The notes below the pieces were generated by a model that did no database searches, was not told the DNA's origin, and worked only from the letters and a program-made list of their open reading frames with translations. Shown here in pieces: positions 11,570-51,626 of a stretch of 64,000 bases of DNA. The DNA comes from an uncultured Oscillospiraceae bacterium (GTDB lineage: Bacteria > Bacillota > Clostridia > Christensenellales > CAG-314): contig CAZSIF010000006.1 of NCBI GenBank assembly GCA_964607155.1, forward strand, positions 25,048-89,047, written 5' to 3'. Both the position numbers and the translations under genes were made by a program. Within the stretch, counting starts at the first letter, position 1. The number at the start of each line of letters is the position of its first letter.

Positions 11570-13606
11570 TCATGATAATAATTCGCAATCCGTAGCAAAC
11601 GGCTTTTCCGTATCCGGCAGACTGTGTAAAATTCGATAAGCAAGCCTGCCCGCTTTTTCGGTGAGAATGCACACGTTTGTATATGCTTGCGAAAGGCTTG
11701 CATTGCTATCGTTGATATTGTCGTGCAATGTCAAGTCGGCATAATCATTTGCAAGATTGAGCATTCTAAGCCGAGCGGTTTGCAAAAGCTCGATTCGTGC
11801 AGCGCAACACTCGGATAGCCTGCTTAGGCGCAGAATATGCCTGTGGAGTAAGTGACAGGGCAGTTTGTGTTCGGAACACATTGCGTATAGCGCAAGGCTG
11901 TCGTTCAAATGCTTGCGTGCGCAGGGCAAAAGGCTGTTTTGTAACATATCAACAAGTGTTTTTGCCTCGTTGGCGGCGCTTTCAATACGACTTTTTACCT
12001 TGCAACGAGCACGGATAAGCAGTTCCTCGTGCGATAATACTTTTGTTTGCGTAAATAGTTTTACTGCTTTGGGCGAGCTTAAGCATTGCGCCGACTGTAG
12101 CAGCTGTGTGTTAGATGGCATTTTTTTGTGGTAGCCGAGATTGGTGGCGTAGTAATCCCCGTTAAAAACAATGCGACCGTGCGTATCCAACGTACGTCTT
12201 ATTAGACGCTGTGCTTGCAGTGTGATGTCTGTGCCGTATAGTTCGGCGGAAAAATCGCGTAGCACTGCTGCAACGGCTGTGTTGAACGCCGTGTTTAGCT
12301 CGGCAATGGCGCCGTTGCTGCCAAGTATCCTTAGCTCAAGCTTGCATCGAGTAAAAACAGCGGGTGCGGTGCGATTGCGGTCAATAAGCTCCGATGGCGG
12401 TGGCGTAATGGCGGTTGGTATGCTGTTTAGCCAATGTAACAGTTCTTCACCGATGCACACGGACGGAACGTTTGGCGGAGCCTCGTTTTTGCCCAGTCTG
12501 CGCAAGTTGGATGTGGAGTCTACTGTGGCAAAGATAATTTCACCGTAGATATCCAGCGCTTGTATTATTGCAGATAGTAGCAGCGCAAAAATTATCGGTG
12601 GTGATGTTTTGGGGTCGATTAGATTTAATTTGTCTGTAAAAATCGACCAGTTGCTGTGCTTTCCGCTACCGTTTGTGTGTCCGAACGGCTTTTCGTCAAA
12701 TAGGCAGGTTAAAGCGTGCTTTTGTGCCGCCACTTGCAGGGTTTGCATTGCTATCAGATTGTGCATGCACGACGTTGTGGCATTTTCGTGCCCTGTTACC
12801 AGCTCGTATTGGTGTGGCGCGCCTTCGCTGTGAACGGTGGTCACGTCAATGTTCATTTTGCTTAGACGCTGCGTTACATCGTCAAAAAAGCGCTCGACAC
12901 GTTCTGGTAACGGTGATAAATAACTACTTGTAGCGTGTTGCGGTACAGTCGGCGTTAATAACGACCTTCCGCAATGCATAATGTCACGCCTCGCTTGCGC
13001 TGTGGCGGCATCGAGTAAAAAGAATTCTTGCTCGACGCCTACCGCAGGAAAAATCGTTTGGGGCTTATATCCGAACAAGGCGAGTAATGCCCTGCAGTTT
13101 TCTGCCAAGGCATTGCAAGAGCGTGCAAGTGGTGTAAGGCAATCGAGCGTTGTGCCGTTTGGGCAAAAAAGACCGCTTGTGAGATATAGCGTGTTATCAA
13201 TAACGTATGGCGATGCTAAGCCTGCACGCAGTATTCCACCGGCTTTTGCAGTGCTACGCGCTCCGCAGTGCGGTAGGCTCGATGCATCGCATTCGTTGCA
13301 TAGCGACAATGCCTTGTTTCGTTTTGAACCGTTGGGAACGGGCGTTTTTTTTATTGCAATGCTTCTGTCTATGCAAAAAGCAATGTGGGCATAGCTTGTT
13401 ATTCCGAGTCGTTTCGCCTTGCCTTCGAGTCGTTTCGCCTTGAATATTTTTCTTTTGTTGGTAGGCTCGATGTCGTTTTGCAGCGACGTATCTAAATTAA
13501 TTTCGGGCAAGTTGTGGTGTTGTGCACGAGTGTTATCGTGGCGTTTGGTTTTGTTGTGTAGCATGCTTTTTGCCTGATTATTATTTATATGCAATGACTC
13601 GCGCAA
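11570..13606 (-). CDS. Type III glutamine synthetase-like protein (divergent)
   Basis: GS-III blocks are present: ECDASSLPHCG (cf. EPDASSFPSGG), VGVEQEFFLLD, HSEGAPHQYE, NGSGKHSNWS, RLGKNEAPPNV and DRNRTAPAVFT. The first approximately 90 aa are low-complexity and unlike canonical GlnN. Confidence 0.65.
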   Translation of the reverse strand: MRESLHINNNQAKSMLHNKTKRHDNTRAQHHNLPEINLDTSLQNDIEPTNKRKIFKAKRLEGKAKRLGITSYAHIAFCIDRSIAIKKTPVPNGSKRNKALSLCNECDASSLPHCGARSTAKAGGILRAGLASPYVIDNTLYLTSGLFCPNGTTLDCLTPLARSCNALAENCRALLALFGYKPQTIFPAVGVEQEFFLLDAATAQARRDIMHCGRSLLTPTVPQHATSSYLSPLPERVERFFDDVTQRLSKMNIDVTTVHSEGAPHQYELVTGHENATTSCMHNLIAMQTLQVAAQKHALTCLFDEKPFGHTNGSGKHSNWSIFTDKLNLIDPKTSPPIIFALLLSAIIQALDIYGEIIFATVDSTSNLRRLGKNEAPPNVPSVCIGEELLHWLNSIPTAITPPPSELIDRNRTAPAVFTRCKLELRILGSNGAIAELNTAFNTAVAAVLRDFSAELYGTDITLQAQRLIRRTLDTHGRIVFNGDYYATNLGYHKKMPSNTQLLQSAQCLSSPKAVKLFTQTKVLSHEELLIRARCKVKSRIESAANEAKTLVDMLQNSLLPCARKHLNDSLALYAMCSEHKLPCHLLHRHILRLSRLSECCAARIELLQTARLRMLNLANDYADLTLHDNINDSNASLSQAYTNVCILTEKAGRLAYRILHSLPDTEKPFATDCELLS

Positions 13607-17357: not shown

Positions 17358-17386
17358 TTGACTTTTTGTCAGGGGGGGGGTATAAT
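17358..17386 (+). promoter_or_regulatory. Consensus sigma-A promoter with a G9 homopolymer filling the 3' end of the spacer
   Basis: TTGACT (17358-17363), a 17-nt spacer TTTTGTCAGGGGGGGGG (G9 at 17372-17380), then TATAAT (17381-17386). It lies 38 nt upstream of the ATG of the TIR-LRR gene, whose RBS is AGAGAGG. Confidence 0.6.
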
Positions 17387-17424: not shown

Positions 17425-20400
17425 ATGGAACGATACGTCTGCAAAGTGTGCGGCGAACAGCTCGAACAAAAGATAGGCGACTTTTACGTCTGCAAATACT
17501 GTGGCTCACGTTGGAAGGTGGAAAAGGAAGTAACTCGTCTGCCCGTGTTGGATAACGCTTGGCAAGCCTTGCGCAACGGAGATTTCGACGTTGCGGAAGA
17601 GCTGTTTGAGGATGTCATCAACACGGATAACGCCAATCACGAAGCCTACTGGGGCAGGGCATTAGCCGCTGCAAGCATAATTTATGTAAACGACCTCAAC
17701 GAAAATAAAAAAGTACCCACTTGTAATAATATTTCGGAACAGGTGTTTGCCGATGGCACGTTTGTCAAAAAGGCAATCGAGCTTGCCCCTGCCGAGATAG
17801 CAGATAGCTACAAGCAACAAGCCGAGTACATAGATAAGGTTCGTATCGAGTGGTTAAACAAAGCCAGTAAAGAGCCTGCTTACGACGTGTTTATTAGCTA
17901 CAAGGATAGCGACAAGGAACACGGCATCGAACGCACTCAGGATAGTTATGACGCACAAGAACTGTACACCGAGCTTGTTCGCCGTGGATATAACGTGTTT
18001 TATAGCCGCGTTAGCTTGCGAGATAAGCTTTCCGAGCAGTACGAGCCGTACATATATAACGCCATCAAAACCGCAAAGGTAATGATAGTGCTTGCGGAAA
18101 AGCCTGAGTATATAACCGCAACGTGGGTAAAAAACGAGTGGTCACGCTTTCGTAATAGAATAGAGTGCGGTGAAAAGGACTCACGCAGCCTTGTGTTTGT
18201 TTACAAAAACCTTGACTTGTCGGATATACCTGCCGCTTTGCGTTCACGCCAGTGCTTGAACATGGCGGAAATGACATTTTTGCCTTCGCTAATATCTCAC
18301 ATCGAAAAGGTCATCGAAAGCACACGCAAAAACCAAGGTGTGGAAAAGATTGCAATAACAGGCGGCAAGATTGCCAAAAAGTCTACGGAGATATCTCAAA
18401 ACCAAATAACGGTTAGAGAGATAGGCAGCACGGTTGCACAAACGTCCCTTAACGATGCGCAAACGCTAAGCCTTGTTATGTCATATTTGGAAACAAATGA
18501 CTTTACTCATGCACAAAAATGTTTGGACGGCTTGTTGTTATCGGATTCGGAAAACGGTGAGTTTTTGCTTGCAAAACTGTTGCTTGAAAAACGCTGTTCT
18601 ACTATAAAAGCATTAATGACGGAGCTGTCAAATTTTGATAAAAGCGACTTTTCATTCATTGAAAGTATTATTAGTCGCTTGCCCAAAAAGGAAGCGAAAA
18701 AATTGCTTGCCGCAATGTATGAGCGCGCAAATGAAGTAAACGATATACTTGCGGCTCGCATATATGAAGTGATTTTGCCTTTTGCGTGCACAAATCGCGA
18801 TAAATTTATTCTTAACGCGGTGGACAATTGTATCGAAAATGGCAAGTTAAAAAGCTTCAAGCAGTTGCTTTTAACGCTGGATAAAAACGATACGGATAAG
18901 TATATTGAGTTGAATTTGCGCTTTGTTGAGCATAACAAGCCAAAGGACGATGAATATGCTGCCTGTATTGAGTGTTTACAAGCAGCTTTGGATGTGGACG
19001 AGGGTAATATTGTTGCTCTTGATGCGCTTTTGGAATTTGGCATTTGCAAAAATGATAAGTCGTCGGAGGAATTGTACGCTTTATTTGAAAGATTGTTGTC
19101 CTATTCCTCAGATGTTAACAAGGTAGTTGCAGAGTGGCTGCCTAAATTGCAAGCTTTGTATAATGACAATAATTGTGCGACTTGTATACTATGCTTTAGG
19201 CAAATGCTTAAATACTACCAAGCGGATCTATCAAATTTAGACGAAGCGATTTTGAATTTCGCAGATTTGTTATTGTCGGAATACAATTTCGCGGACGCCA
19301 ATGTTTTATATGACATCGTATTGGCTCATTCCACGCAATCACCGAGGGCATATTTGGGCATTGCGTTATCTAAAATTGGCGCGCCCGACATAAACAAATT
19401 GGGAATTAATTGTAGCAAGATAACCGACCTGCCGGAGTTCAGTAAGTACTTGTCGCTTTTGGATACTAAACAACGCAAGCAAATTTTGGCAAATATCCAA
19501 CGTCAACAAACAGATTTATCTCAACGAACCATTGCTGACGAGCAGTGTGCGTCGGAAAGGTATTCCGACTATGTGCATGCACGCAAAAATAGTTTTTTTG
19601 CTGCAAGAAAAGGTATAATAATTCGCAGCATAATATTTTCTGTAATTTGGCTTGTATTTTGCGGTGCAATAAACCTTTTAAGTAACCGCGAACTTTGGAC
19701 TTGGTGGCTGATACTTATTGCAGTCATCGTTGGCTTATTGTTTGCTTTTATTATTTCATATCGCACAGCACGTCGAATTGTACTATTTCCGTGGTTGTTA
19801 GGAGATGTTGCTATCGTATATGCTTTTAGGGGTATTTCGCCATCTGATTTGAGAGCCATAGTGTATGGTGCGTTGGGAGTGTATTTCTTTTTTACATTCA
19901 TTGGTATCTGTATGCCTACTGATGCTGATAGGATATTTGGAACTCGAAAAAGAATCCATTTGACGGAAGAAATAGCAAATAGATATATTGACCAAGATGG
20001 CCTTATGGAAGTTAAGTGGAGTGCTATCTCGAAACTTGACATTGATGGCAACGTAAAAGAAATCTGTAATGATTTATTTGAAAACTGCTGTGATTTACGC
20101 AAGGTATATTTTTGTGGAACTGCCGATAATTGGAACAAGATAAAGTTCAAATCCGGCAAGTCAAATCCGTTGCGTTGGGGCGCAGCTTTGTACGTTAAAG
20201 GTAAACGAGTTACTAACCTCAAACTGTCAGATGTGTCAGATTATGCATTTTACGGTTGTGGCTCGCTTACCGATGTTTGTTTGACTGAAGCTGTTAAGCA
20301 TATTGGTAAGGAAAGCTTTTACGGTTGTCGCTCGCTTGAAAATATTTCTATTGATTGCTCGTCGTTAACTATCGGAGAAGATGCGTTTGCATATTGCGAA

Positions 20401-20640
20401 AAGCTTGCGCAAGTATCGTTTGGCGCAAATGTAAAGCGTATTGGTTCAAGAATGTTTTATGGGTGTAGCTCGCTTTTGACCATTCGATACGATGGCAAGC
20501 AAAAGGATTGGGTTAAGCTACCCAAAAAGGCAGACTGGAATATTGGCACGGGCGGCTACAAGGTATACTGTACGGACGGAGTGTTGGACAAAAGTGGCAA
20601 TTGCATCGAGCAGTACGAAAGTGGTTACTTTCTGAAATAA
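17425..20640 (+). CDS. Multidomain membrane protein: zinc ribbon, TPR-like helices, TIR domain, helical repeats, 3-4 TM helices, BspA-type LRR
   Basis: Domains by residue: CxxC..CxxC at aa 6-26; a TIR-like block at aa ~152-290 (YDVFISYKDSD...VMIVLAEKPEYITATWVKNEWSRF); hydrophobic helices at aa ~731-830; LRR units (IGxxxFYGCxSL) at aa ~860-1050, ending in GYKVYCTDG as in the lipoprotein at 4837. Confidence 0.75.
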   Translation: MERYVCKVCGEQLEQKIGDFYVCKYCGSRWKVEKEVTRLPVLDNAWQALRNGDFDVAEELFEDVINTDNANHEAYWGRALAAASIIYVNDLNENKKVPTCNNISEQVFADGTFVKKAIELAPAEIADSYKQQAEYIDKVRIEWLNKASKEPAYDVFISYKDSDKEHGIERTQDSYDAQELYTELVRRGYNVFYSRVSLRDKLSEQYEPYIYNAIKTAKVMIVLAEKPEYITATWVKNEWSRFRNRIECGEKDSRSLVFVYKNLDLSDIPAALRSRQCLNMAEMTFLPSLISHIEKVIESTRKNQGVEKIAITGGKIAKKSTEISQNQITVREIGSTVAQTSLNDAQTLSLVMSYLETNDFTHAQKCLDGLLLSDSENGEFLLAKLLLEKRCSTIKALMTELSNFDKSDFSFIESIISRLPKKEAKKLLAAMYERANEVNDILAARIYEVILPFACTNRDKFILNAVDNCIENGKLKSFKQLLLTLDKNDTDKYIELNLRFVEHNKPKDDEYAACIECLQAALDVDEGNIVALDALLEFGICKNDKSSEELYALFERLLSYSSDVNKVVAEWLPKLQALYNDNNCATCILCFRQMLKYYQADLSNLDEAILNFADLLLSEYNFADANVLYDIVLAHSTQSPRAYLGIALSKIGAPDINKLGINCSKITDLPEFSKYLSLLDTKQRKQILANIQRQQTDLSQRTIADEQCASERYSDYVHARKNSFFAARKGIIIRSIIFSVIWLVFCGAINLLSNRELWTWWLILIAVIVGLLFAFIISYRTARRIVLFPWLLGDVAIVYAFRGISPSDLRAIVYGALGVYFFFTFIGICMPTDADRIFGTRKRIHLTEEIANRYIDQDGLMEVKWSAISKLDIDGNVKEICNDLFENCCDLRKVYFCGTADNWNKIKFKSGKSNPLRWGAALYVKGKRVTNLKLSDVSDYAFYGCGSLTDVCLTEAVKHIGKESFYGCRSLENISIDCSSLTIGEDAFAYCEKLAQVSFGANVKRIGSRMFYGCSSLLTIRYDGKQKDWVKLPKKADWNIGTGGYKVYCTDGVLDKSGNCIEQYESGYFLK

Positions 20641-33708: not shown

Positions 33709-34332
33709 ATGGCAATAATGAACGTTAATCCAACTCGAATGGAAATGAAGCGGCTGCAAGCGCGACTAAAAACGGCAACGCGCGGACACAAGTTGTTAAA
33801 GGATAAAACGGACGAAATGATCCGTCGCTTTATCACGCTTGCACAGGAAAATAAACGTCTCCGTGCGGAAACGGAGCGTGAGTTATCCGATGCGCTTGTC
33901 AGTTTTACGCTGGCTAAGGCGGCAACCGACGGACGTATGGTGGACGAGGCAATAATGATGCCCTCGCGCACGGTGAGTTTAACCTGCTCCAAGCGCAAGG
34001 TGATGGGTATCGACGTGCCGGCAATTGATATCGACGATACGCAAGACTCGCTGTATCCATATGGTTTTTTGGCGCAAAGCGGTAGTTTGGATGAAGCTGT
34101 TAGGGGACTTAATGCTGTGCTGTACAAGCTAATACGACTTGCAGAAACGGAAAAAACCTGCAATATGCTCGCCGACGAAATTGAAAAAAATAAGCGTCGC
34201 GTTAACGCACTTGAAAATATCATGATACCGCAGCTGACGGAAACCATTCGCTATATCAAAATGAAGTTGGACGAAAGCGAGCGTTCCGCTACGGTGCGCT
34301 TGATGAAGGTCAAAGATATGCTAAACAATTAA
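33709..34332 (+). CDS. ntpD: V/A-type ATPase subunit D
   Basis: NVNPTRMEMKRLQARLKTATRGHKLLKDK is the canonical subunit D N-terminus. The gene is separated from ntpB by an unusual 300-nt spacer. Confidence 0.9.
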   Translation: MAIMNVNPTRMEMKRLQARLKTATRGHKLLKDKTDEMIRRFITLAQENKRLRAETERELSDALVSFTLAKAATDGRMVDEAIMMPSRTVSLTCSKRKVMGIDVPAIDIDDTQDSLYPYGFLAQSGSLDEAVRGLNAVLYKLIRLAETEKTCNMLADEIEKNKRRVNALENIMIPQLTETIRYIKMKLDESERSATVRLMKVKDMLNN

Positions 34333-34460: not shown

Positions 34461-34501
34461 AGTTAAAACACAAAGCGCAGGCTAATTTTAGCCTGCGCTT
34501 T
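34461..34501 (-). terminator. Distal intrinsic terminator of the orphan minus-strand unit
   Basis: AAAGCGCAGGC / GCCTGCGCTTT 11-bp perfect stem, followed on the minus strand by GTGTTTT. Confidence 0.6.
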
Positions 34502-34600
34502 GTGTGTGTTGTTTATGTCTAATTCTCGCTTGAAAGGAAAACTAAACAAATCCCTCCGTAAAAGTTTTTTGTTGATGTGGTGTTTTCGATTATTTGTCGT

Positions 34601-34643
34601 ATAAATAAAAACGCTATCCGATAGCCAAAAGCGTCGGATAGCG
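34601..34643 (-). terminator. Proximal intrinsic terminator of the orphan minus-strand unit
   Basis: CGCTATCCG / CGGATAGCG 9-bp perfect stem, followed on the minus strand by TTTTTATTTAT. Confidence 0.6.
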
Positions 34644-34735
34644 CAAAAGGAACGCCTAGTGGCGTTGTGTGCTAATGTTCCGACTTTGTTCCGCCAAGGT
34701 CTGTCGGCTACCAAGGCGTCTGACGAGTATGCGCG

Positions 34736-34775
34736 GTACATCTCCAAGCGTATTTGAGCTTTGGGATTTACAATG
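34736..34775 (-). repeat. Copy E of the recurrent hairpin motif (inside the candidate ncRNA)
   Basis: Minus strand reads TTGTAAATCCCAAAGCTCAAATACGCTTGGAGATGTAC. Compare copy B, GATGTGAATCCCAAAAGTTGGACGCTTTTGGAGGTGCAT. Confidence 0.6.
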
Positions 34776-34811
34776 CTACTCGTATTTGATGGCATATAAA
34801 AATATATTAGT

Positions 34812-34840
34812 ATTATAAAGCCTTGCTTGTGTCGTGTCAA
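34812..34840 (-). promoter_or_regulatory. Perfect consensus sigma-A promoter (P1) of the orphan unit
   Basis: Minus strand reads TTGACA-CGACACAAGCAAGGCTT(17)-TATAAT. Confidence 0.55.
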
Positions 34841-34891: not shown

Positions 34892-34922
34892 ATTATACCC
34901 CCCCCCCCCCGAATATTGTCAA
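34892..34922 (-). promoter_or_regulatory. Second promoter (P2) with a G13 homopolymer in the spacer
   Basis: Minus strand reads TTGACA-ATATTC-G13-TATAAT, a 19-nt spacer. The G run abuts the -10 hexamer exactly as at 17372-17380. Confidence 0.45.
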
Positions 34923-35109: not shown

Positions 35110-36498
35110 TTAGTAGATGTAAATGCGTTTTTTGAGATAATCTTTCAGTTCGGCGACGGGAATGCGCTCCTGCTGCATGGAATCTCTTTCGCGCACGGTA
35201 ACACAGCCGTCGACCTCGGTGTCGAAGTCGATGGTGATGCAAAACGGCGTGCCGATTTCGTCTTGACGGCGATAACGTTTACCGATGCTACCTGCCTCGT
35301 CGTAATCGCAAGTAAACTCCTTTATCAGGTCGTTGTATATATCTGTTGCCTTGTCGCTAAGCTTTTTGGATAGCGGCAACACGCACGCTTTGACGGGGGC
35401 AAGCTCGGGGTGGAGGTGCAACACTACGCGTGTGTCGTTTTCACCAACAACCTCTTCGTCGTAGGCATTGGATAAAAATGCCAAAAAGGCTCTGTCTACG
35501 CCAAGGCTTGGCTCAATAACGTACGGAATGTACTTTTCGTTGGTAACGGGATCGAGGTAATCCAGTGTTTGACCGCATGCTTCGCTGTGGCGCGTAAGGT
35601 CGTAATCGGTGCGGTCGGCAATGCCCCAAAGCTCACCCCAACCGAATGGGAATTTAACCTCAAAGTCGGTGGTGGCTTTGCTGTAAAAGCACAGCTCGTC
35701 TTTATCATGGTCGCGCAGACGCAAGTTTTCTTCCTTCATGCCAAGGTCAAGCAGCCACTGTTTGCAAAAGTTCTTCCAGTAATCAAACCACTCGAGGTCT
35801 GTGCCGGGCTTGCAGAAGAATTCCAGCTCCATCTGTTCAAACTCGCGCTGTCTAAAAATAAAGTTGCCTGGGGTTATCTCGTTGCGGAATGCCTTGCCGA
35901 TTTGTCCGATTCCGAAAGGTACTTTGCGCCTTGTGGTACGGCATACGTTTTTGAAGTTTACAAAAATTCCTTGTGCTGTTTCCGGACGGAGATATACGGT
36001 GGAGGTAGAGTTTTCCGTTACGCCGATAAAGGTTTTGAACATCAGGTTGAACTTGCGAATGGAGGTAAAATCGCATTTTCCGCACACGGGGCAATGTATT
36101 TGATGCTCCACAATGTAGGCGGAAATCTCGTCATCGCTCATTGCTGCAACGGTATTGGGCAGATTATGCTTTGATTGATATTCCTCAATCAAGTTGTCTG
36201 CACGATAGCGAGTTTTGCAACCTTTACAGTCGATTAGCGGATCGGAAAAGCCTGCAAGGTGTCCTGTTGCCTCCCATGTTTTGGGATTCATTATGATTGC
36301 TGCGTCAATACCGACGTTAAGAGGATTTTCCTTGATAAACTTGCGGTACCAAACGTTTTTGATGTTGTTTTTCAGTTCCACGCCAAGAGGACCGTAGTCC
36401 CACGAGTTGGATAGACCGCCGTAAATCTCACTGCCGGAGTACACAAAGCCCCTGCCCTTTGCAAGATTTACAAGCTTGTCCATTGTAAGTTGAGCCAT
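35110..36498 (-). CDS. glyQS: Glycine--tRNA ligase (homodimeric class II type)
   Basis: N-terminus [36 protein letters not shown] and a full-length 462-aa GlyRS pattern. GGAG RBS. Confidence 0.95.
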
Positions 36499-36530
36499 AG
36501 TAACTAATCTCCTAAAAATAATCTAAAAGT

Positions 36531-36559
36531 ATTCTAAGTTTTTATCTGAAATTTGTCAA
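36531..36559 (-). promoter_or_regulatory. Sigma-A type promoter for glyQS
   Basis: Minus strand reads TTGACA-17 nt-TAGAAT, about 30 nt upstream of the glyQS start. I could not recognise a T-box leader. Confidence 0.5.
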
Positions 36560-37219
36560 GCGTGTGTGCCGTCTTGATACGCTGTTGCGGCGTATTTTTT
36601 TTTTGTTGGAATCGCTTTTGTGGCGGTATTGGCATTTGTTTGCGATGTTTTTTATAATTGAGCAAAATTCCCGTGACTAAATAAATGTGTTTTTAGAAAA
36701 CTATATCAAATACAAGTGTTTTTAAAGAACCATACTAAATAAACGTCCTTTGGGGGAACTATACTATATATATCCATACCGTTAGCAATGCATTCGAGCG
36801 ATTGGAAGTCAGCCCCGTTATGACCACTTTGATACCTATCCATAGATTATTTATTCGATTTTAGCGGAGAACAACATGATTGGAAGTTGTATTTTGTTTT
36901 TACGTTGTCAAATATAGATTTCCGGCGGGTGTTGTGTGCAGGGGCGGACTATGTAATAGGGCTATACGAGATGTTTATTGAGTGTTGTGCGGTGACGTTT
37001 TTCATGGGGTGCGTGGCGATAGCAATAAAAAAGTTATTTCTTGCGTTTTTTCAGCCCGATTTTAGCATAATATGATAGTATAACTATAAAATATAGGCAT
37101 GCTTGGTTGATTTGTGACGCAAAAGCTTTTTTGGAATGCGGCTTGTTGTAGGGGATTGCTTACTATGGAGCGTCGCACACGAGCATTGTGCACTATTGTA
37201 TCCCCATCGGGAGGTAAAA

Positions 37220-50557: not shown

Positions 50558-51424
50558 TCATGGCTCTGTACCCCCCCCCGTTTGACGTCTAAATTGTCCC
50601 GGAGAAACGCCGTATCTGTTTTTGAAGTTTGCGCTGAATTGCGAAAGCTTTGCGTAGCCGACAAGTTGGCAAACTTCAATAACCTTTATGTCCGTACTTC
50701 TTAGCAGGTTGGCGGCATATTGCAGTTTGTAGCTTACCAAATATTGATGAGGTGTAACGCCAAAGTGCTGTTTGAACAGTCGCAGCAGCTGCATACGGCT
50801 ATAGTCCAAGCTGGCGCAAAGGTCGTCCACGTTGTACGACAAAAAATCTTTTTTATCCATCAAGCGTATCAGTCGTGCCTGAAATGTGGATTTTTGTTGA
50901 GATAACTCGTGCAAAAAATGTCCGTAAAAGCGTTGCAGCAACAGCAAAACGGCGGAGCACACCAAATCGTTGTATTTTTTGTATTGCGAGCTTGCCAGCA
51001 GGTTTAGTTGGTGAATTATTTCGTCAATTTCGTCCACGATATATGGCATCAAAGCGAGGCTTTTTTGTTTCGCTTGCACAAGCTGCTGCCAAAAATCAGG
51101 CGATATGGCATCTGCAAGTTGCTTTAAGGTTGCCTCTCTCACAGCAAGGTTAATGTAGCGTATCTGTTGACTGCGTTTTTTCAGGTAGTGTTCGTCGTCT
51201 GTGGTGGAGTAAAAAACGATATTTTTTTCGTAAACCTGTTCCGTGCCGTTGGATACGTTGCCCAATTTGCCGTCGGTAATCACGGTGAACTCCCAATAAT
51301 CGACATGTCCGTGGGGGATGGGGAAATCGAAGGTGTTAACGTGATAGGTGTACGAAATTTGCTCCATGTCGCTCATCAGTACATACGCATTACTGTTGTT
51401 AAGTGAAAAAGAATAGCGTTCCAT
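50558..51424 (-). CDS. AraC family transcriptional regulator
   Basis: C-terminal double HTH (LCASLDYSRMQLLRLFKQHFGVTPHQYL...IEVCQLVGYAKLSQFSANFKNRYGVSPGQF). I chose the ATG at 51424 after AAGGAG. It is divergent from the GH130 gene. Confidence 0.8.
   Translation of the reverse strand: MERYSFSLNNSNAYVLMSDMEQISYTYHVNTFDFPIPHGHVDYWEFTVITDGKLGNVSNGTEQVYEKNIVFYSTTDDEHYLKKRSQQIRYINLAVREATLKQLADAISPDFWQQLVQAKQKSLALMPYIVDEIDEIIHQLNLLASSQYKKYNDLVCSAVLLLLQRFYGHFLHELSQQKSTFQARLIRLMDKKDFLSYNVDDLCASLDYSRMQLLRLFKQHFGVTPHQYLVSYKLQYAANLLRSTDIKVIEVCQLVGYAKLSQFSANFKNRYGVSPGQFRRQTGGGTEP
50571..50579 (-). repeat. G9 (C9 on the plus strand) homopolymer inside the last codons of the araC-family gene
   Basis: It encodes the GGG of ...RRQTGGGTEP*. 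A length change alters only the C-terminal tail: +1 gives an approximately 25-aa extension and -1 gives a 6-aa alternative tail. Confidence 0.9.
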
Positions 51425-51626
51425 CTGTTGTTGCTCCTTATCCCGACGGCGTTGCGACAGTCGAGTTTTAGTAGGCATATTGTACGATAACAAAATCAAA
51501 ATTGCAACAATTTGACGAAAAAAGTTACAAAAAAAGATTTTTGTGTTGTATTTGGGTATAGAAAACCGAATGCCTCGTTTGATATAATTTTTTTTAGAAA
51601 GTTATTCGAGTGAGGTTGATTTCCAT

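Follow-up and report, generated by a model that had tools for sequence, protein, structure and literature searches.

Organization of the locus

The window, i.e. the whole stretch of DNA that was analysed (64 kb), is part of a single 93,826-nt NCBI contig from one assembly. Its GlyRS and V-ATPase subunit D proteins assign it to an uncultured lineage of gut Clostridia/Oscillospiraceae-like bacteria, with MAGs from rabbit, deer and other animals. Among ~15 billion proteins, the GlyRS of the window stands alone in its cluster at 90% identity, and exact look-ups of six window proteins revealed no second assembly of the same species. The glyQS gene lies beside the V-ATPase operon in this genome only; in the relatives, the neighbours on either side are different genes.

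The spacer between glyQS (stop codon at 35110, minus strand) and the convergent V-ATPase D gene (stop codon at 34332, plus strand) is 777 nt long, and no credible protein gene was found in it. On the minus strand, the order of the features is: the glyQS terminator, a first promoter (P1) with a run of 13 G residues, an inverted repeat, a second promoter (P2), a region of ~200 nt (sRNA-A), the terminator T1, a block of ~65 nt, and the terminator T2 (Table 1). One hydrophobic frame at ~34470-34335 (minus strand, IVAPILSAYLFATSIFLFSLIKNQKK) is similar to small membrane toxins; it was rejected as a gene, because it lacks both a start codon (ATG, GTG or TTG) and a ribosome-binding site. The hydrophobic stretch with its basic tail (IVAPILSAYLFATSIFLFSLIKNQKKNAIAKK) is probably an effect of the AT-rich composition.

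Table 1. Coordinates of the spacer features and of the long G runs in the window and in related contigs (L numbers).
Feature	Record	Position	Strand	Description	Basis
glyQS terminator	window	35094-35052	minus	14-bp stem and T9; bounds the unit on its upstream side	
P1, -35 hexamer	window	34922-34917	minus	TTGACA	direct reading and pattern search
P1, spacer bases before the G run	window	34916-34911	minus	ATATTC	direct reading
P1, G13 homopolymer	window	34910-34898	minus	C13 on the plus strand	direct reading
P1, -10 hexamer	window	34897-34892	minus	TATAAT	direct reading
Inverted repeat	window	34880-34842	minus	AT-rich, imperfect; between P1 and P2	repeat search and direct reading
P2	window	34840-34812	minus	tract-free; TTGACA 34840-34835, 17-nt spacer CGACACAAGCAAGGCTT, TATAAT 34817-34812	12/12 in promoter scan
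Candidate sRNA-A	window	34805-34601	minus	~200 nt, P2 to T1	fold, GC, terminator
Terminator T1	window	34643-34634 and 34621-34612	minus	arms CGCTATCCGA and TCGGATAGCG, then T5 (U5 in the RNA)	
Candidate sRNA-B	window	34574-34460	minus	block 34574-34506 and strong two-way terminator T2 34505-34468	
Copy of sRNA-B in the sister species	L088	1982-2102	minus		
Sister promoter	window	17358-17386	plus	TTGACT-TTTTGTCA-G9-TATAAT, 17-nt spacer; G run from 17372	direct reading and pattern search
G9 run	window	50571-50579	minus		
Long G run	L001	8553-8561			
G10 promoter of a related genome	L006	12927-12956	minus	TTGACA-TTTTCGAC-G10-TATCAT, N8 before G10 (12933-12942), 18-nt spacer	
G9 run	L016	675-683	plus	within signal-peptide codons (MKKLLAIILALTMIAGGGIPLAVSA)	

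Searches for known RNA families did not assign the spacer. No tRNA or tmRNA was found in the window by ARAGORN, and Rfam 15 gave zero matches at gathering thresholds over the whole window. At E <= 10 the spacer gave only terminator-driven or chance matches, and none to a T-box or riboswitch. Many Firmicutes control glyQS by a T-box leader. The proximity of glyQS and the presence of GUACCGCG in the spacer RNA led us to consider a T-box leader, which was rejected with zero T-box matches. Moreover, no T-box leader was detected in the upstream region of glyQS (36499-36900, minus strand), and a T-box match occurs nowhere in the window.

The promoter P1 and its G tract

On direct reading, P1 agrees exactly with the original prediction, which described TTGACA-ATATTC-G13-TATAAT with a 19-nt spacer and with the G run abutting TATAAT. 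The tract fills 13 of the 19 spacer positions, all in the 3' part, and touches the -10 hexamer. No longer G/C run occurs in ~1 Mb of sequence from the lineage. P1 has all the sequence features of a sigma-A/sigma-70 type promoter, and its sole defect is the length of the spacer; in the 64-kb window, spacers of 16-17 nt occur in all five of the other TTGACN-N15-20-TATAAT sites. The start site might be located at ~34885, given the usual distance of 6-7 nt to the -10 hexamer.

The predicted spacer follows the length of the tract, and would be 16 nt with G10, 17 nt with G11, 18 nt with G12, and 19 nt with G13. It had been proposed that the loss of two G residues restores 17 nt; indeed, G11 places the two perfect hexamers exactly 17 nt apart. 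At the assembled length, P1 should be weak. Homopolymers of 13 are error-prone in short-read and long-read assemblies alike, and the assembled G13 could be wrong by a base or two. To call this length an 'OFF state', as was done originally, is too strong, since the assembled length is uncertain and a perfect promoter with the same target lies downstream. One cannot read the state of the locus from that of P1, because P2 is both perfect and tract-free.

The promoter P2 and the inverted repeat

P2 was the sole 12/12 match in the promoter scan of the region. It had been reported as a perfect promoter at 80 nt from P1, and the measured distance is 82 nt from -35 to -35, with P2 downstream. Its start site is expected near 34805. 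The region upstream of P2 is AT-rich and includes the inverted repeat. This repeat had been described as AT-only; the repeat itself was confirmed, whereas its composition was not, because each arm carries one G or C and the loop is CCGAT. Pairing of the outer part requires a bulge of 1 nt (12 nt at 92%, 16 nt at 75%). The repeat could be an UP element or an operator for P2, and it appears as the 5' hairpin of the predicted P1 transcript (centroid fold). A second good copy, as part of a regulon, was not found in the window.

Candidate small RNAs downstream of the promoters

The features downstream of P1 and P2 suggest that the candidate target of both promoters is a non-coding RNA and not a protein gene, which was overlooked in the original prediction. 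The first candidate, sRNA-A, has an AU-rich 5' end, a long first hairpin, and four CCGAC/GUCGG segments, which permit a terminator fold or, alternatively, an antiterminator-like one. Its GC content is 0.465 vs 0.32-0.36 in the surrounding DNA. The predicted fold has a free energy of -62.3 kcal/mol (z = -4.1), and the form initiated at P1 has z = -5.2. When the terminator fold was forced, the energy was -59.9 vs -62.3 kcal/mol for the MFE fold, which occupies both arms of the terminator. In these fold models the T1 region resembles an attenuator; the only unit downstream of it is the sRNA-B module. No homologue of sRNA-A was found in any locus fetched from the relatives. A search for RNA targets within the window gave complementary 11-13-mers at chance level only.

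The predicted fold of the second candidate, sRNA-B, consists of a single-stranded GGAGGG, a 14-bp hairpin, a CA-rich linker, and the terminator (z = -7.45). sRNA-B was the only part of the spacer that is conserved in contigs of a sister species (L088 and L089, Logan assemblies). It shares 88.7% identity over 97 nt with the copy in L088, and ~95% in the block that precedes T2 (3 of ~65 nt differ); the adjoining atpD coding DNA has ~88% identity between the two species, which is below that of the block. Moreover, two pairs of the T2 terminator are changed on both sides between the window and the sister species, with the pairing kept. The L088 block has its own TTGACG-17-TAATAC ~35 nt upstream, and is preceded by a repeat-rich gene for a probable surface protein. 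A remnant of this upstream gene in the window was considered and rejected, as the tblastn search of the L088 protein against the window was empty. A covariance model used to search for further copies of sRNA-B gave only weak terminator-like matches. As judged from its sequence conservation and predicted fold, the sRNA-B module is, whatever the role of the G tract, a candidate new small RNA that is absent from Rfam.

The upstream part of the unit has a different distribution. The segment from P1 through the inverted repeat and P2 to sRNA-A was absent near glyQS or atpD in the relatives retrieved via GlyRS (80 loci) and via AtpD, in which the gene order around the locus breaks on both sides. It was also absent from the sister species in L088 and L089. 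The segment and its adjacency to glyQS thus appear specific to the species of the window, because the sister species keeps only sRNA-B, located after another gene. In metagenomes, neither the promoter flanks nor the conserved sRNA-B block had a match (0 in each scan), and two viral-contig scans also returned 0 matches.

Long G runs in the lineage

The pattern TTGACW-N4-14-G7-TATAAT has 2 matches in the window vs a mean of 0.00 in 100 dinucleotide-preserving shuffles, and a chance origin of the G-tract promoter pattern is excluded. Only three G/C runs of at least 9 nt occur in the window. The G runs were counted on both strands of the window and 87 related loci (~995 kb), and the counts were 481 for G5, 58 for G6, 3 for G7, 0 for G8, 4 for G9, 1 for G10, and 1 for G13. 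There are six runs of 9-13 G where none is expected from the decay between G5 and G8, and the length distribution is bimodal. The long runs are a population apart from the shorter ones, since the lengths fall to zero at G8 and reappear at G9-G13. Long G runs are otherwise purged from the lineage.

Half of the six long runs lie in promoters of the form TTGAC[AT]-N6-8-Gn-TAT[AC]AT and abut the -10 hexamer; two of these are in the window and one is in L006. Two others are within coding sequence. Promoter spacers and signal-peptide codons are typical settings of contingency loci. The G10 promoter of L006, an independent MAG from another study, precedes a gene whose product has a signal peptide or membrane anchor at its N-terminus, and the G9 run of L016 is located in the gene of a secreted protein. 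From their sequence context, these tracts in related MAGs look like contingency tracts.

The original prediction proposed a genome-wide class of such promoters. The recurrence was supported by the sister promoter and by L006, but the genome-wide scale was not, with 2 sites in 64 kb and 1 in ~930 kb of relatives. A lineage-level class of G-tract promoters is plausible, because the same layout recurs in the sister promoter and in L006. P1 and the sister promoter have little in common besides the hexamers, the G run, and the sequence GCTTGAC. A mobile promoter cassette was therefore rejected; flanking repeats were also not found.

The sister promoter is located 39 nt upstream of a gene (17425-20640, plus strand) that encodes a product of 1071 aa. 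Judged from the spacer length (G9, 17 nt), the sister promoter is nominally ON. The protein contains an N-terminal zinc ribbon, TPR and TIR domains, predicted membrane-spanning segments, and a C-terminal BspA-type LRR region. Its family is large (1666 proteins at E <= 1e-30), and only a weak PADLOC match was obtained. The promoter tract was absent from the retrievable contigs of the TIR/LRR homologues, which are ~50% identical and have unrelated upstream DNA. A transmembrane TIR/LRR protein under predicted control by slippage merits a study of its own.

The remaining long run of the window (G9 at 50571-50579) lies in the gene of an AraC-family regulator (50558-51499, minus strand), 12 nt ahead of the stop codon. 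It encodes Gly-Gly-Gly, and a slip of +1 or -1 would alter the last few residues only.

The sequence flanking the long runs is also restricted. TA follows all six G runs of at least 9 nt in ~1 Mb, and C precedes five of them. TA follows only ~9% of the G5 runs (43/481), and it is in none of the eight commonest contexts listed for the 58 G6 runs. The naive probability of TA after six of six long runs is ~5e-7. The -10 hexamer accounts for TA in three of the six; the coding and other intergenic cases are unexplained by it.

Proposed function of P1 and alternative explanations

P1 is very probably a real promoter with a hypermutable tract in its spacer, as suggested by its sequence. Simple-repeat tracts of a length like G13 are expected to slip readily in replication. 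We propose, with about even confidence, that P1 is a sigma-A-type contingency promoter (phase- or rheostat-variable) of the porA/tp0126 type, and that, as the distal promoter of a tandem pair, it serves a non-coding RNA. Slippage of the G tract would shift the spacing around the 17-nt optimum, which is reached at G11. Both P1 and P2 would transcribe the gene-free spacer; the first product would be sRNA-A, ending at T1, and read-through of T1 would lead into the sRNA-B module and end at T2. The tract would most likely alter the amount of the RNA and the presence of an 80-nt 5' extension with the AT-rich hairpin, rather than switch a protein on or off. Activity of P1 could also interfere with P2, whose AT-rich upstream region lies inside the P1 footprint and transcribed region, or could relieve a repressor bound at the inverted repeat.

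A more specific form of this proposal should be regarded as rather doubtful. It holds that the G tract toggles the distal promoter, so that subpopulations vary the amount or the 5'-extended isoform of an attenuator RNA that gates read-through into sRNA-B, that the locus is thereby a phase-variable riboregulator, and that the tract belongs to a set of 'C-Gn-TA' contingency tracts found across the lineage. If such a set is true, its other members would control the transmembrane TIR/LRR protein and secreted proteins.

Several points stand against P1 as a contingency promoter. With the perfect P2 only 82 nt away on the downstream side, the state of P1 may not matter; G13 is outside the productive range of G10-G12, and also fits a decaying and unselected tract; the function of sRNA-A has no comparative support, as no homologue was found. 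The uncertain assembled length, the absence of the segment from the sister species and from the glyQS and atpD neighbourhoods of the relatives, and the chance-level complementarity within the window also count against it. P1 might be a redundant or decaying relic, with P2 alone expressing the RNA locus and slippage having no consequence. This is somewhat unlikely, but it is a serious possibility. P2 is a 12/12 promoter with an AT-rich upstream region and could drive the locus by itself, the spacer of 19 nt in P1 is beyond the 16-18 nt range, and the segment from P1 to sRNA-A is lineage-specific and evolutionarily young. However, both hexamers of P1 are still perfect, which is unexpected if they are unselected. 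Tracts of the same layout with lengths in the range precede intact genes at the sister promoter and in L006, whereas long G runs are otherwise purged from the lineage.

The tract might also be mis-assembled. In this case the true spacer would be 17-18 nt, P1 would be an active partner in a strong tandem pair, and its 'OFF' state would be an artefact. We consider this quite improbable. The general error rate of 13-nt homopolymers and the single available assembly are in its favour; however, the tract is flanked by unique sequence, and shorter tracts occupy the same position elsewhere in this assembly as well as in the independent MAG L006. Moreover, G11-G12 would still be hypermutable, and so the inferred state changes but the mechanism does not.

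It is very unlikely that the product of the locus is a small protein, encoded either by an ORF of 110/125 codons (ORF125, 34463-34840, minus strand) or by a TTG ORF of ~27 codons after GGAGGG in the conserved block. ORF125 is the spacer's only long ORF and its frame is open for 125 codons, but it starts at the TTG inside the -35 hexamer of P2. The first ATG would have a leader of ~10 nt without a Shine-Dalgarno sequence, and the frame crosses both terminator hairpins. No homologues were found by word search. A phmmer search against 1.84 billion representatives gave one match, the BspA-LRR repeat protein P0246 (E = 1.1e-4), in which one similarity of 30 residues is counted against 4-5 near-identical LRR-like repeats and lies partly over translated promoter DNA; no Pfam LRR was found in ORF125 even at E <= 10. 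The similarity to P0246 was rejected as a repeat-inflated chance match. As for the TTG frame, the GGAGGG precedes its start codon, but the distance from GGAGG to the TTG is just 3 nt. The block differs between the species by three substitutions, each of which changes the amino acid in this frame; this argues against a peptide from the sRNA-B block.

The G tract might instead act at fixed length, via DNA structure (a rigid A-like G:C tract or non-B DNA) or as the binding site of a regulator. The shared Gn-TA context, with C before five of the six runs, points to a sequence-specific constraint beyond spacer length, but this reading is very unlikely, since two of the six runs are inside coding sequence, where promoter structure is meaningless, the lengths differ among the sites (9, 10 and 13), and no binding protein or motif was identified.

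Comparison with known phase-variable promoters

Promoter switching driven by simple repeats is well established in a few pathogens. For example, slipped-strand mispairing reversibly alters transcription at the poly-A tract of the Mycoplasma hyorhinis vlp genes, the poly-C tract of the Bordetella fim genes, and the TA repeats of the Haemophilus hif genes. Repeat slippage in or near the promoter also reversibly alters the transcription of opc and nadA in Neisseria meningitidis (PMC7864442, PMC2791445). The repeats of these five systems differ from that of P1 in type and position (overlapping the -35, upstream of the core, or in the activator spacing), and all of them control surface structures, unlike P1.

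The layout of P1 is similar to that of porA (N. meningitidis) and tp0126 (Treponema pallidum), which have a poly-G tract between the -35 and -10 hexamers and whose expression peaks at 17-nt spacing; in T. pallidum, poly-G tracts of at least 8 nt are mostly length-variable (PMC7864442). In P1 the G homopolymer is also located between recognisable hexamers, and G11 would give the same 17 nt. However, porA and tp0126 drive genes of outer-membrane proteins in Gram-negative or spirochaete pathogens, and both their variation and their length-dependent activity have been measured. P1 further differs in its candidate non-coding target, its host among the gut Clostridia, the second promoter downstream, and the tract abutting the -10 hexamer. 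The proposed mechanism of P1 is of a known kind; the interest lies in the host (uncultured commensal Clostridia) and in the candidate RNA target.

Phase variation in Clostridia has been described mainly as DNA inversion, for example at the invertible promoters of Clostridioides difficile (PMC11868660). Heritable and stochastic promoter switching, as proposed for P1, would thus be shared with C. difficile in one bacterial class; whereas the C. difficile switches use site-specific inversion, the G-tract site has no associated inverted repeats or recombinase. A recent review also asks whether repeat-driven switching is truly confined to pathogens or only seems so through biased sampling (PMC11868660). 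If the tracts vary, uncultured commensal Clostridia of the gut would also keep several slippage-controlled loci, and a true lineage-wide set would extend multi-locus, repeat-based phase variation to this group. Homopolymers in promoter spacers are easy to scan for in MAGs, and easy to validate with existing reads.

The closest functional precedent for P1 is NikS (HPnc4160), an sRNA of Helicobacter pylori whose level is tuned by the variable length of a T stretch directly before the -10 (PMC8322730). As with NikS, the product of P1 is a candidate small RNA and the homopolymer is directly upstream of the -10 hexamer. NikS differs in its T stretch, its repression by NikR, its targets (the mRNAs of cagA, vacA and outer-membrane proteins), and its species-wide conservation; whereas the P1 locus has a G tract, tandem promoters, and an orphan RNA. 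If the tracts vary, one of these loci would control a regulatory RNA and not a surface protein, for which NikS was the sole precedent located.
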